From Candidatus Parcubacteria bacterium (GTDB lineage: Bacteria > Patescibacteriota > Patescibacteriia > Patescibacteriales > UBA12075), in contig CAWFCE010000002.1 in the NCBI GenBank assembly GCA_963814275.1, positions 234,537 to 298,536 on the forward strand: a stretch of 64,000 bases of DNA. The letters are read 5' to 3'. Both the position numbers and the translations under genes were made by a program. Of this stretch, positions 26,200 to 60,692 are shown piece by piece. Below the pieces are notes generated by a model that worked only from the letters and a program-made list of their open reading frames with translations, made no database searches and was not told the DNA's origin. Numbering within the stretch: position 1 is the first letter of the stretch; each line of letters begins with the position of its first letter.

Positions 26200-26475
26200 C
26201 TAGTTTGGTTATAAAGTTGAAAGTAAAAAGTTGTAAAGACGGAATGGTCATTTGGACCAATATTAGGCTGATTCATAATTTTATTTGGCTAATATTAAGT
26301 AAATTATAGCATTTGGTTAGTATTTAATGAAAATTTAAAATTTTTGGTTTGATAATAGATAGAAGATAATAGATAACATCTAAATTTCCTTTCTGATGAA
26401 ATGAGGTACTGGATCCTTTCGTCATTGTGGGGGTCCAGGATGAGGAAACAGCGATGTTCTATTTAGAACGTTCTT

Positions 26476-26550
26476 CTACTCGACTTCAGTCGAGGTTTGG
26501 GTGGGTTTATCTGCATACGATTATATCAGGCTAAAGCCTGGCGAACCTTC
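26476..26550 (+). repeat. hairpin-module intergenic repeat, copy A
   Basis: CTACTCGACTTCAGTCGAGG..TTTATCTGCATAC..CAGGCTAAAGCCTGG..AACCTTC aligns with 52351-52429. Contains hairpins CTCGACT/AGTCGAG and CAGGCT/AGCCTG. Confidence 0.7.
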
Positions 26551-26627
26551 GGCCCTGCCTGCCGGCAGGCAGGAAAAGACAAGTGGAAAAATCGAAAATT
26601 GGAAAATCACCATTCGAAAATTAAATT

Positions 26628-26701
26628 GGGCCATTAGCTCAGTTGGCTAGAGCGCTTGCATGGCATGCAAGAGGTCAAGGGTTCGAATCCCTTATGGTCC
26701 A
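26628..26701 (+). tRNA. tRNA-Ala (anticodon GGC)
   Basis: Acceptor GGGCCAT/ATGGTCC with G3:U70, anticodon loop ATGGCAT, T loop TTCGAAT. Confidence 0.92.
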
Positions 26702-26702
26702 C

Positions 26703-26741
26703 ATTATATAATTCCACTGTCGCACAGTGGAATTATATAAT
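26703..26741. other. perfect 17-bp hairpin immediately after tRNA-Ala
   Basis: ATTATATAATTCCACTG-TCGCA-CAGTGGAATTATATAAT. No T-run follows. Confidence 0.6.
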
Positions 26742-26778
26742 GCTGATGATAATGGCGATTTGAATTTTAGCTTGTTGT

Positions 26779-26814
26779 GGGGCTTCCGCCCCTTCGAATC
26801 CATTATAGTCCGCA
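26779..26814 (+). pseudogene. degenerate tRNA 3'-half fragment (resembles tRNA-Ala T arm/acceptor)
   Basis: GGGGCTTCCGCCCCTTCGAATCCATTATAGTCCGCA compared with the tRNA-Ala 3' end AAGGGTTCGAATCCCTTATGGTCCACA. Confidence 0.4.
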
Positions 26815-27341
26815 TAAACATATAATTTAGATAAGGTAGAAGTTCCAGGTGGAACAAAATAGATCAGAAATACATTTACATAAATATCTGGAATTCCGAT
26901 GGCTCGGAAATGACAGATTAAAATAGAAATAAAACAGGACTCACAAACAGGGGAATAAGGCATGGCTATTTAAGTCCACAAAAATGTGGACTTAAAATAT
27001 TTTGTATTGGGGAAAAGTCTAGATTTTTGTAGACAAAAAGCCATTTTTAATTTAATATTAGCAAAAATAAGTCTAGTGGATAAATAGGGGAAAAGTGGGT
27101 ATAAATTAGGGTGAAATTGGATATTAATATATTAGCAAAGGGGTCATATTACACCTATTTCAAGTTAGGTGGTAAATTTTCAATAATCCAATAATCCAAA
27201 TTGATTATTGCCCGGCTGTTTTAGGCCAGAATAGTCTATAAAATTTTGATATTGAAAATTAGTTATTGATTGGATAATTGGGTTATTGAAAATTGAAAAT
27301 TAGTAATCTGACGTTGTATAAAAAAATAATAAGACATTATT

Positions 27342-28322
27342 ATGGAAAATAACAATGAAAATATTTACGATGTTATAATCATCGGCTCCGGTCCGGCGGG
27401 GATTACTGCCGGGATCTACGCGGTCCGGCGGGAGATGAAGGCTCTGGTGATCGGTAAGGATGTTGGCGGGCAAGTGGTCTGGGCCAGTGAAGTCGATAAT
27501 TATCCCGGCCTGCCCCGCATCGGCAATATCGAGCTGATCGAGAAATGGCATGAGCATGCCAAGGGGTTGGGAGTGCAGTTCAAGCTTGACGAGATCAAAG
27601 AGATCAGGAAGGAAGGGGAGTACTTCAATCTATTCACCAACAAAGAAACTTATACGACCCGGACAGTGATCATTGCCATGGGACTGGTGCCGCGTCGGCT
27701 GGCAATACCCGGCGAGGAGAAGCTGACGGGCAAAGGGGTGTCCTACTGCGCTAATTGCGACAGTCCGTTCTACCGTAATCAGGATGTGGCCGTGGTCGGC
27801 GGAGGCAACTCCGCCCTGGATGCGGCCGAGATCCTGTCCAAGATCGCCAAGCAGGTCTATCTGGTCCACCGCCGCGATGAGTTCCGCGGTTTCGACGCTC
27901 TGCTCTCCGAGGTCAAATCCAAGCCGAACGTCAAGATCTATACGCCCTGCGAGATCTCCGAAATCCAGGGTGAGGAACGCGTGACCGGCCTCAAACTCAA
28001 AGACACCAAGAACGGCGAATGCAGCGAGGTGAAATTGAACGGCGTCTTCATCGAGATCGGCCGTATTGCCCACAGCGACCTGGTGGCGGAATTTGTGGAC
28101 CGCACCAAGAAGGGCCAGATCATTGTTGACGACAAATGCCGCACCAAGACCCCGGGCCTCTATGCCGCCGGCGACATCACGACCACGCCCTACAAGCAGA
28201 TCACGATCGCCATGGGCCAGGCGACGATCGCCGCCTTGGCCGCCTATGAATATATCCAGATGAAGGAAGGCAAAGATATCACCGGTCCGGTATTTGACCG
28301 GGGACCGAAGAAACTGGACTGA
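27342..28322 (+). CDS. trxB: thioredoxin-disulfide reductase
   Basis: FAD motif IIIGSGPAG, redox site CANC, NADPH motif VVGGGNSALDAA, C-terminal AAGD. Confidence 0.9.
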   Translation: MENNNENIYDVIIIGSGPAGITAGIYAVRREMKALVIGKDVGGQVVWASEVDNYPGLPRIGNIELIEKWHEHAKGLGVQFKLDEIKEIRKEGEYFNLFTNKETYTTRTVIIAMGLVPRRLAIPGEEKLTGKGVSYCANCDSPFYRNQDVAVVGGGNSALDAAEILSKIAKQVYLVHRRDEFRGFDALLSEVKSKPNVKIYTPCEISEIQGEERVTGLKLKDTKNGECSEVKLNGVFIEIGRIAHSDLVAEFVDRTKKGQIIVDDKCRTKTPGLYAAGDITTTPYKQITIAMGQATIAALAAYEYIQMKEGKDITGPVFDRGPKKLD

Positions 28323-58865: not shown

Positions 58866-58866
58866 T

Positions 58867-59577
58867 ATGGACCAAAAAACCCAAAAAGAACTTTGCGATA
58901 TCGTAAAACATAATTATGAGGAAATCGCGGAAGAATTCCATGAAACCCGCCGAAAGTATTTGTGGCCGGAATTGATCAAATTGGCAAAAAACGTCAAAGA
59001 CGGAGACCGGGTGTTGGACGTCGGTTGCGGCAGCGGGCGCCTGGCCGAAGCGTTTATGGGTAAAACCGTGAGTTATATCGGCGTCGATGCCTGCCGCCGC
59101 CTGATCGAGATCGCCCGCGAAGAAGAGCCGGATTGCCGATTTTTAATCGGCGATGTGCTAGAATTGGGCTTGATTCCGGAGATTGAATTCGATTATGTCT
59201 TCTGTATCGCTATGCTGCAGCATATACCGGGAAGCAAGCTGCAAGTCGACGCTTTGAGACAGATGCGCAACAAGATCAAGCCGGGCGGACAGGTTATCGT
59301 TTCGGTGTGGAATATGCGGAGCCGGATTTGGGCGGATAAGAAACCGTACCGCCGCCTGATTTTCAAGTTCATGCTTCTTAAATTGATCGGTAAGAATAAG
59401 ATGGATTTTGGCGATATCATAATCGACTGGAAGAATCCGGCCGGACAAACGATAAGCAAGCGTTATTATCACGCATTCCGCGGCCGGGAACTCAAGCGTC
59501 TGGCCAGGAAAGCGGGCCTTAGGGTCAAGAAATTCTACAAAGATCAGTATAATTATTATTTGATTTTGAAAAGATAA
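58867..59577 (+). CDS. class I SAM-dependent methyltransferase
   Basis: Motif I VLDVGCGSGRLAE and post-I/II motifs. Confidence 0.8.
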   Translation: MDQKTQKELCDIVKHNYEEIAEEFHETRRKYLWPELIKLAKNVKDGDRVLDVGCGSGRLAEAFMGKTVSYIGVDACRRLIEIAREEEPDCRFLIGDVLELGLIPEIEFDYVFCIAMLQHIPGSKLQVDALRQMRNKIKPGGQVIVSVWNMRSRIWADKKPYRRLIFKFMLLKLIGKNKMDFGDIIIDWKNPAGQTISKRYYHAFRGRELKRLARKAGLRVKKFYKDQYNYYLILKR

Positions 59578-59669
59578 TTCCAATCCGCAAATTTATCCGG
59601 ATAACACAAACAACTTTAAAACTTTTGGAATAATTCGAATATTAATTAGTAATATTCAGATTATATTTT

Positions 59670-60047
59670 ATGAATATCAGTTCTGAACAATTCGAAAAGA
59701 TCGTGGCTGAAGCCATTGACTCATTGCCCGATAAATTTCAGGTAAAGATCAATAATCTGGCAGTATTAGTTGAGGATTTTCCCACCGCTGAGCAGTTAAA
59801 AAAAGTTAAACTTCACAATAAATGGAGCTTGTTCGGCCTGTACGAAGGTTATGTACAGTCGCGCCGTGTTAATGTCGGCGCAGTCCTGCCGGACCGGATA
59901 TCGATTTTTCGCCAGCCGATACTGAGGAGCTGCCATAATCCCGAGGACTGCCGTGAACAGATTATCAAGACGGTCAAGCACGAGATCGCCCACCATTTCG
60001 GCTCCGATGAGACTGGGGCGAGAAAAGCGGGAGGGAGCAAAACTTGA
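59670..60047 (+). CDS. zincin-like metallopeptidase family protein (DUF1025-like)
   Basis: 125 aa with C-terminal HEIAHHFG (HExxH) in the arrangement typical of this small family. Confidence 0.7.
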   Translation: MNISSEQFEKIVAEAIDSLPDKFQVKINNLAVLVEDFPTAEQLKKVKLHNKWSLFGLYEGYVQSRRVNVGAVLPDRISIFRQPILRSCHNPEDCREQIIKTVKHEIAHHFGSDETGARKAGGSKT

Positions 60048-60258
60048 TTTATTTTTTCTTTTATGTTAGTCTATAAAAGACTCCGAAAGGGAGTTTTTTG
60101 TAATATTGACAGTTGCTAAACGCTAGTATTTATTCTAAAATACTTTCGGTAATATATAATTCAAAATAAACAATATTTGTAAGCTCCCGTGGTGAAACGG
60201 ATATTATATCCCGCGAAGCGAGTGCCTGTAGCTCAATAGATGGCCCCGCACCTTTTGC

Positions 60259-60332
60259 GCTCCGGTAGCTCAACTGGATAGAGCGTGTGGCTTCGGACCA
60301 CAAGGTTAGGGGTTCAAGTCCCTTCCGGAGCA
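60259..60332 (+). tRNA. tRNA-Arg (anticodon TCG)
   Basis: Acceptor GCTCCGG/CCGGAGC, D arm GCTC..GAGC, anticodon loop CTTCGGA, T arm AGGGG-TTCAAGT-CCCTT. Confidence 0.9.
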
Positions 60333-60502
60333 CAGAAGGTGCGGGGTCGAACAAAAAGGTTACGGGTTCGTCAGGTCATTCGACCTGACGCCCGGTCGAA
60401 TGACCGGGCGAGTCCTGACGGGAGCACACGGAAATTTTCGATTGACGATTTATGATTTTCGAAACAATTCTGAGATCGAAAATCGTAATTCGAAAATTGC
60501 GG

Positions 60503-60576
60503 GGCTGGGTAGCTCAGTTGGTTAGAGCGTAGCACTCATAACGCTAAGGTCGTGGGTTCAATCCCCACCCCAGCTA
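60503..60576 (+). tRNA. tRNA with CAT anticodon (elongator Met or Ile2; not initiator-like)
   Basis: Acceptor GGCTGGG/CCCAGCT (G1-U72), anticodon loop CTCATAA, T arm GTGGG-TTCAATC-CCCAC. No three G-C pairs in the anticodon stem. Confidence 0.85.
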
Positions 60577-60692
60577 CGAGCAAGCTAAGAAGTTCGTAAA
60601 GTTTAAAGTTTGTAAAAGCTACGGACGATTAGTATTGTGCGATTAGGCAAAATATACTTTCAACTTTAAACTTTTCGACTTTAAACTATTTT

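Follow-up and report, generated by a model that had tools for sequence, protein, structure and literature searches.

The DNA analyzed in the present work, a stretch of 64,000 nucleotides from Candidatus Parcubacteria bacterium (contig CAWFCE010000002.1; hereafter the window, to whose positions the coordinates refer), harbors short tandem arrays of seven-nucleotide units. Their over-representation in the window was confirmed to be genuine, and such arrays characterize a single clade of the Patescibacteria (Candidate Phyla Radiation, CPR), to which this 1.27-Mb genome is assigned. [quoted passage not shown] On this reading, the array class as a whole is neither a terminator nor a protein-binding site.

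Period-7 Arrays in the Window

A first-pass annotation of the window had reported pervasive heptanucleotide arrays, whose consensus changes from site to site. The window was scanned with Tandem Repeats Finder (TRF), and period-7 arrays were counted against 200 dinucleotide shuffles, each intergenic region being shuffled separately and long open reading frames (ORFs) being masked. Seven is the commonest TRF period across the window, with rows at 26351-26376, 27285-27301, 29053-29084, 29119-29152, and 32811-32825 in the first half of the list and at 50931-50946, 50992-51010, 51491-51521, 60597-60611, and 60656-60687 in the second. The intergenic DNA contains 10 period-7 arrays of three copies with no more than three mismatches, versus 1.1 expected (0/200 shuffles reach this count), and five occurrences of two exact heptamer copies, versus 1.2 expected (again, 0/200 shuffles). 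As for the other unit lengths, the same test gave two period-8 arrays (0.16 expected) and none of periods 10-12 in the intergenic DNA. Head-to-tail seven-nucleotide units are present, and they exceed both the shuffles and the neighboring unit lengths, as in heptanucleotide repeats of the LSSR/STRR type; the pervasive arrays of the first-pass annotation are thus borne out. In the coding DNA of the window, the shuffle test revealed no excess (three period-7 arrays versus 1.6 expected), and, under a strict criterion, the window exemplifies only weakly (three arrays versus 0.4 expected) what is a conspicuous trait of its clade.

The variability of the consensus was also recovered: each genome carries dozens of distinct units, which are A-rich and G-poor (AAAAATT, AAAAGTT, AAATTTC, AAATCCC, and ACACTCG, among others), in arrays of three to six units and at most 41 nt. 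Arrays of the same locus share their unit (with no more than one mismatch) in 30% of cases, compared with 18% across loci.

The ten TRF arrays lie at or near sites listed by the first-pass annotation; nevertheless, some of these sites are weak, two have a period of eight, and one is located within a gene. The (AAAGTTG)-type array of about 3.5 units at 26213..26238 (plus strand), beginning 13 nt past tRNA-Arg(CCT), remains under the thresholds of both TRF and the shuffle test (10/14 lag-7 matches). The sequences at 26584-26607 and 27181-27199, listed as heptamers, have period 8 according to TRF; the former belongs to a mixed 8/7-nt array of GGAAAATN and TCGAAAAT units (26584..26622, plus strand, TRF period 8) that stops 5 nt short of tRNA-Ala. 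The segment 37942-37974, which overlaps the supposed AATTCGT array at 37949-37988, is mostly of period 16 and embeds just two AATTCGT units. Lastly, the CATTCGT array at 51490-51522, taken as intergenic, falls inside tsaD (51070-52158, minus strand).

Inverted Pairs and Hairpins

Several arrays have an inverted partner, and the claim that such pairs can form hairpins was corroborated by RNA folding: five pairs of the window, all described here on the plus strand, fold with z scores versus shuffles ranging from -3.4 to -10.9. The strongest one (29048..29159), (GCACATR)x5 / (YATGTGC)x5, has complementary arms at 29048-29084 and 29123-29159 (37 nt, 86%), forms a stem of about 44 bp, and folds at -60.6 kcal/mol (z -10.9); its first arm codes for the final six codons and the stop of RNase HII, and the second one precedes the probable start of the methyltransferase gene. 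The pair upstream of trxB (27175..27301) joins an arm of period 8 (27175-27199, CAATAATC) to one of period 7 (27270-27301, ATTGAAA), complementary over 25 nt (27175-27199 / 27270-27294, 92%), with a fold of -36.9 kcal/mol (z -5.1). The pair (CGTAAAT)x2.3 / (TACGATT)x2.7 (50931..51010, arms 50931-50946 and 50994-51009; -24.8 kcal/mol, z -5.7) is placed between the stop codon of a histidine kinase gene and a separate GC-rich terminator. The remaining two surround tRNA-Met: arrays of the (TTTTCGA) and (TCGAAAA) types form a hairpin that occupies the spacer 5' of it (60436..60498, arms 60436-60466 and 60473-60498; -23.4 kcal/mol, z -4.4), and the pair (TAAAGTT)n / (AACTTTA)n follows immediately 3' (60590..60687, arms 60590-60618 and 60657-60686; -24.4 kcal/mol, z -3.4).

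In the relatives of the window, an inverted partner within 200 nt was found for 18/38 intergenic arrays versus 6/80 coding arrays. Unit variants are mirrored between the two arms (29048/29123 in the window, and a spacer of the related locus L128), and the arms are therefore true reverse complements rather than just arrays of the same unit.

A further hairpin, of 28 bp, lies between tRNA-Glu and the start of tsaD (52175-52240; -35.8 kcal/mol, z -8.7); its diverged ortholog in L128 (9905-10000) contains GAGCACT-type heptamer units.

Distribution across Relatives

The distribution of the arrays was analyzed in stretches of related genomes surrounding either RNase HII (at least 8 kb) or TsaD homologs (the loci designated by L numbers). 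The best relatives of the TsaD of the window are Patescibacteria, with an identity of no more than 68%, and the nearest RNase HII genes belong to Candidatus Moraniibacteriota (56%). In the 80 metagenomic TsaD loci (747 kb), we counted 79 intergenic period-7 arrays versus 13.4 expected and 143 coding ones versus 48.4 expected, i.e., about three-fold. The excess over shuffles amounts to 0.1-0.8 arrays per kb in most of the loci whose TsaD is 57-64% identical to that of the window and is close to zero in CPR loci at a greater distance. Among the complete relatives, the closest one is L128 (TsaD 65% identical, 48% GC), with nine arrays versus 1.2 expected. Among the CPR loci retrieved through RNase HII, observed and expected counts were 3/0.4 (L001), 4/0.3 (L003), 9/0.6 (L027), and 1/0.4 (L034, whose single array has five units), and two loci (L041 and L045) have no period-7 excess. 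The non-CPR RNase HII loci are near background (nine versus about 4.5 expected, by hand sum), with L039 and L047 as minor exceptions. This distribution is restricted and sporadic, as is that of LSSR/STRR-type heptamers, and the assignment to an STRR-like heptanucleotide class made by the first-pass annotation is supported by a lineage property beyond chance.

Three of these loci have features of their own. The contig of L039, labelled as a Ruminococcus sp. metagenome-assembled genome, has AACAGTG-type heptamer arrays that form an inverted pair (8796-9001), which suggests either the heptamer trait outside the CPR or a mis-binned contig. L135 is very array-rich, with 17 period-7 arrays in 15 kb (regions 3595-3750, 9531-9679, and 11203-11240), and the spacer that separates its RuvC and YebC-family genes harbors an (AATTTTC)n / (GAAAATT)n hairpin. 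In L128, the pyruvate phosphate dikinase gene (11273-13308) seems to be broken into four or five short ORFs and represents either a pseudogene or the outcome of assembly frameshift errors.

Arrays inside Genes

The gene tsaD of the window embeds, in frame and on the minus strand, the array AAATGTC GAATGAC GAATGAC GAATGCC GAATT (51490..51522), which is translated as KCRMTNDECRI. In the alignment of the TsaD sequences, the loop bounded by GYPGGP and LPRPM contains, in nearly every member of the clade, a peptide with a seven-residue periodicity. It reads CRMTNDECRI in the window, whereas other members have, for example, CRMSNVECRI, LKVKSEKLKV, LQATNYKLQA, or YELQVMNYEI, and some have much longer ones; a 7-nt array read in three frames would give such peptides. 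In comparison with the Thermotoga TsaD (6NAK), the array segment substitutes for and slightly extends a short variable loop. Further arrays are found in other TsaD loops and, in L135, within the FemAB and Mur ligase genes. A hyper-turnover of the arrays was considered for the pair L057 and L072, which are 97% identical, and was set aside, since the loop region falls in a locally 80%-identical stretch.

Selection acts on the coding arrays by removing solely in-frame stop codons. Long ORFs (200 aa or more) harbor 73 arrays, 52 of which have units that are stop-free in any phase, compared with 29% of the intergenic unit/strand combinations. In 21 arrays, the consensus implies an in-frame stop, which is absent from the actual sequence in 20 of them. 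In the tsaD array of the window, TGA is kept in two out-of-frame units, and TGT or TGC occurs in the two in-frame ones. These data, together with the presence of the arrays in genes, indicate that they are translated and merely tolerated.

Three TsaD genes (L053, L068, and L128) have the same unit in more than one loop (two or three); a pair of these loops, separated by about 180 nt, carries it in opposite orientations (20/21 complementary). Complementarity of at least 18/21 occurs in 3/59 genes versus 1/695 cross-genome pairs; a long-range pairing of the two loop arrays is thus above the control, yet it is not conserved.

tRNA Spacers and Gene Ends

The association of the arrays with tRNA genes is weak but reproducible. 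Nineteen out of 105 arrays flank tRNAs, a 1.8-fold enrichment relative to the share of these flanks in the intergenic bases (10%; p=0.008), which lends weak support to what the first-pass annotation had proposed. Its statement that a common motif precedes tRNA-Ala and tRNA-Met within 7 nt was exact: ATTCGAAAATT occurs exactly twice, 5 nt 5' of the former (26612-26622, as part of the 26584..26622 array) and 4 nt 5' of the latter.

The tRNA Arg-Met-Lys cluster is orthologous between the window and L128, and in both of them the Arg-Met and the Met-Lys spacers consist of heptamer hairpins, which have unrelated units (z -10.9 and -7.2, respectively, in L128). Furthermore, AAAGTT-type arrays follow tRNAs in three genomes (L074, L070, and, after tRNA-Met, the window), and AAAGTT itself is enriched 3.3-fold in tRNA 3' trailers. 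In view of the orthologous hairpins and of the arrays trailing tRNAs, the spacer hairpins may contribute to the structure of tRNA precursors. The search of Rfam with the window and 11 array-rich loci retrieved nothing but tRNAs.

The placement at gene ends, and the terminator function derived from it, were not supported. Co-directional spacers have array densities of 1.4 and 0.8 per kb, divergent ones, where no 3' ends are located, 0.71 per kb, and convergent ones the lowest value (0.46 per kb), so that the array positions have no 3'-end bias. Moreover, the hairpins combine AT-rich arms with loops of 38-70 nt and are not followed by a T-run, which, together with the spacer densities, leaves the terminator reading unsupported and sets them apart from intrinsic (Rho-independent) terminators, in which a short GC-rich stem and a T-run close a transcription unit. 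The many arrays within coding sequences count against such a role as well, and the pair 50931-51010 has a separate canonical terminator downstream.

Changes between Strains

The comparison of L135 with L136 and L137, which are 99.6-99.8% identical over 10-11 kb, revealed a single multi-base indel, namely, one AAAATTA unit within an array upstream of rpoB. This gain or loss, although a single case, is the signature of a slipped-strand change, and it represents the whole-unit copy-number step between close strains that is typical of LSSR/STRR-type repeats. At a larger distance (L001 versus L003, about 83% nucleotide identity), arrays are kept at orthologous sites.

Origin of the Arrays

On this basis, the following scenario can be depicted. 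Slipped-strand mispairing would generate the arrays and alter their length by 7 nt at a time, the change observed in one array being taken as general; they would remain short (three to six units, up to about 41 nt), and their units would be homogenized locally and turned over, so that each locus acquires its own. They would persist where they do little harm, that is, in spacers, around tRNAs, and in the surface loops of proteins, where they are read in three frames and only in-frame stops are taken out. The inverted partners might derive from local inverted copying or template switching, giving rise to long hairpins, some of which, above all those of tRNA spacers, might secondarily have acquired a role as RNA structures.

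Some observations weigh against this scenario. Slippage alone explains neither why the unit is of seven nucleotides, nor why the trait is found in this clade, nor the inverted partners with mirrored variants. Only one unit-step polymorphism was seen among the strain sets, and two other sets (P0106 and P0044, 99.96-100% identical) have no indels at all. A 24-nt element, CTGCAAATTCGTAATTCGTAGGA, is duplicated at 32806 and 37966, suggesting copying between loci: its 17-mer is exact at the two sites, and 0.4 matches are expected when up to three mismatches are allowed. In L075, the hairpins at 6200 and 15333 are near-identical, including both arms and the loop. Finally, the orthologous tRNA spacers keep the hairpin and replace its sequence, which could mean selection on structure.

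Another idea is that the inverted pairs are functional RNA hairpins, involved in the processing or stability of tRNA precursors and mRNA ends and possibly substrates of an RNase III-type enzyme, the periodicity being incidental. We consider this unlikely, although several findings speak for it: the orthologous L128 spacers with hairpins of unrelated units, the 1.8-fold enrichment at tRNA flanks, the 3.3-fold one of AAAGTT in 3' trailers, and the five pairs of the window, which fold far more stably than shuffles and are each more stable on the transcribed plus strand than on the minus one (-60.6/-39.9, -36.9/-28.5, -24.8/-22.3, -24.4/-20.3, and -23.4/-17.4 kcal/mol for the pairs at 29048, 27175, 50931, 60590, and 60436, respectively). 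However, the plus strand of the window is G-rich, which by itself favors G:U pairs and could explain the advantage in 5/5 cases. In the relatives, the sense-strand hairpin is the more stable one in three cases versus six, and there is no strand asymmetry in G:U-type mismatches. In addition, half of the intergenic arrays and 74/80 coding arrays are partnerless, and the low density in convergent spacers and the AT-rich arms with long loops and no T-run likewise count against it.

A more speculative idea, to which we give little credit, is that an active lineage-specific process (a polymerase or repair activity, or else an ultra-small hairpin element) writes the arrays together with their inverted copies, remodels tRNA spacers and enzyme loops, and thereby generates hairpins that become required for the processing of tRNA clusters.

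Tiny non-autonomous mobile elements, i.e., hairpins resembling REPINs (doublets of repetitive extragenic palindromic, REP, sequences), short dispersed repeats (SDRs), or Rickettsia palindromic elements (RPEs), copied by some enzyme even in frame into genes, appear quite improbable as the source of the arrays as a whole. A single genome contains highly varied units, neither shared termini nor target-site duplications were observed, and the 7-nt gain between strains resembles slippage and not the arrival of a complete element. As for a transposase, a non-exhaustive search of the window did not reveal any, and the ORF at 61665-62912 has no Pfam or PHROG match. On the other hand, the 24-nt element, the L075 hairpins, and the complementary arrays of the three TsaD genes (3/59 versus 1/695) keep alive a mobile-element or template-switching component, and the higher sharing of units within loci (30% versus 18%) would fit with it.

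Iterated sites for a DNA- or RNA-binding protein are very improbable. Tandem heptads in direct and inverted orientation do correspond to the architecture of the sites of omega-type repressors, which belong to the ribbon-helix-helix (RHH) proteins, and ATTCGAAAATT is placed just 5' of two tRNAs; nevertheless, omega/RHH-type iterons have the same heptad consensus at each operator or centromere site, and here the unit differs at nearly every site of one genome. This diversity largely contradicts the binding of a protein, as do the arrays in coding loops and the lack of a fixed position relative to start codons, even though the TAACTGA repeats of Beggiatoaceae have been proposed as sites of a post-transcriptional regulator (PMC4679880).

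The weak sites at 12480, 13730, 34123, and 43221 are AT-rich and of low complexity, but chance or low-complexity sequence is refuted for the class, since 0/200 shuffles reach the count, the excess is specific for period 7, and the GCACATR, CATTCGT, and CGTAAAT arrays are not low-complexity.

Comparison with Known Repeats

Each feature observed here has a precedent; what differs is the tiny CPR host, the many A-rich units, the large proportion of arrays paired into hairpins, and the frequent occurrence of arrays in internal loops of universal enzymes. The cyanobacterial STRR sequences, to which the first-pass annotation had referred, are likewise short, lineage-restricted, and mostly non-coding arrays of tandem 7-nt units whose function is not known; they also occur inside the gene for RNase P RNA, where they lengthen helix P12. 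Strict membership of this group can be discarded, given that it comprises few genome-wide units in heterocyst-formers (three in Calothrix; PMC4692102), whereas dozens of A-rich units per genome occur here in Patescibacteria, with frequent in-frame arrays in conserved enzymes. Heptamers are known from heterocystous cyanobacteria, as the first-pass annotation had stated, but also from Xanthomonas, Beggiatoaceae, and Bacteroidetes (PMC4692102, PMC4679880). Its remark that no equivalent had been described in small-genome uncultivated bacteria was upheld by a full-text search of the literature covered here, which found none for CPR/Patescibacteria.

In the parts of the LSSR literature considered here, no other class of long SSRs is as over-represented as heptamers in many bacteria, with slippage tied to the footprint of the polymerase being proposed as the cause (Mrazek 2007, as reported in PMC4679880 and PMC4692102). 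According to the summary in PMC4679880, the LSSR survey of 2007 has no CPR among its listed repeat-rich genomes and describes a predominance of multiple-of-three units in coding DNA, in contrast to the 7-nt unit that is about three-fold enriched in the coding DNA of the present clade.

The GGGAATC repeats of Xanthomonas are over-represented in intergenic DNA, mostly with about four units and with some nearby inverted pairs that could form stem-loops, and they differ in length and sequence between close species; a similar heptamer SSR, GGGGA(C/T)T, is known in Nostoc (PMC4692102). These belong to one G-rich, quadruplex-prone unit family, unlike the many G-poor, A/T-rich families described here, in which no G-quadruplex is possible. 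The TAACTGA repeats of marine Beggiatoaceae, cyanobacteria, and Bacteroidetes form sets of two to six copies of one unit sequence, mostly intergenic and situated shortly upstream of start codons, and a lone indirect repeat is recorded for 170 sets; inside ORFs they are tolerated in the stop-free orientation only, at protein termini (PMC4679880). In the present clade, the TsaD, FemAB, and Mur ligase arrays are instead located in internal loops.

The RPEs resemble the arrays in that they are palindromic DNA inserted in frame in loops of essential proteins. REP/REPIN sequences share with them the hairpin-forming inverted doublets in spacers (PMC3116915). Both of these have a conserved consensus, and REP sequences also have the REP-associated tyrosine transposase (RAYT); the arrays have arms with a period of seven and no shared consensus, and no associated enzyme was found for them in a non-exhaustive search. 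Without a consensus shared between pairs, they do not match REP/REPIN elements, nor do they match miniature inverted-repeat transposable elements (MITEs), whose families have conserved terminal inverted repeats and target-site duplications, the arms differing by locus and no flanking duplications being seen. [quoted passage not shown]

The preference of bacteria for 7-nt repeat units has been a minor puzzle since 2007. The CPR genomes involved here have a size of about 1 Mb and minimal sets of replication and repair genes, and, given that the trait is found in one clade and is absent from its neighbors, a presence/absence comparison could point to the responsible enzyme. Moreover, the 7-aa-periodic loop peptides of TsaD and other proteins matter when CPR proteins are annotated and aligned and when their structures are predicted, and the arrays represent fast-evolving markers for strain typing.

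Other Arrays and Neighboring Features of the Window

The remaining arrays lie on the plus strand. A GATAATA array of 3.7 units (26351..26378), detected by both TRF and the shuffle test, was absent from the first-pass annotation. The first copy of the 24-nt dispersed element (32806..32829) contains (AATTCGT)x2 and adjoins a terminator-like hairpin in a convergent spacer; the second one (37966-37989, within 37949..37989) has a partial inverted copy, CCTACGAATT, in front and a weak fold (z -2.05). Two AT-rich sites are weak: TAAAAAG TAAAAAT TATAAAT with an inverted partner (34123..34170), upstream of the gene at 34170, and TTTTTCA TTTTTAA ATTTCAA ATTTC (43221..43247), which was in the shuffle-test list.

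Other repeats adjoin tRNA genes. Adjacent to tRNA-Glu, a 32-nt unit is perfectly repeated 2.9 times in tandem (52414-52506, in the region 52340-52510) and resembles a segment of about 90 nt between tRNA-Arg and tRNA-Ala (26470-26560); the two regions contain small hairpins with varied 5-bp stems and a constant CTAAAG loop (six versus 0.5 expected), with no Rfam match. tRNA-Arg(TCG) is enclosed in a 25-nt inverted repeat (60244-60268 / 60322-60346, 88% complementary), which would lengthen its acceptor stem, and is followed by a GC-rich, hairpin-rich stretch of 97 nt (60334-60430) without any Rfam or ARAGORN call.

An ORF of 97 aa (60708-61001, within 60693-61088) matches the GIY-YIG family (Pfam E 6e-15). 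It is placed between 21 nt that duplicate the tRNA-Lys 5' end (60693-60713) and the intact tRNA-Lys, which begins with the identical 21 nt (61013-61033). Since the orthologous tRNA-Lys of L128 directly follows the spacer hairpin, this stretch looks like an insertion of about 320 nt that brought in a free-standing, homing-endonuclease-like gene. The final 25 nt of tRNA-Lys (61062-61086) are exactly repeated at 63338-63362; this attachment (att)-like repeat bounds about 2.3 kb, including a minus-strand ORF of 415 aa (61665-62912) with no Pfam or PHROG match, and the segment 61062-63362 may therefore be a small integrated element with an unrecognized integrase.

Lastly, three adjacent minus-strand ORFs (35629-37668) are made up of 72-75-nt periodic repeats sharing GAACAGCTGATCCAGGACAAA. 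No Pfam match was obtained for 37018-37668, and an exact 21-nt copy is found outside these ORFs, at 38037-38057.

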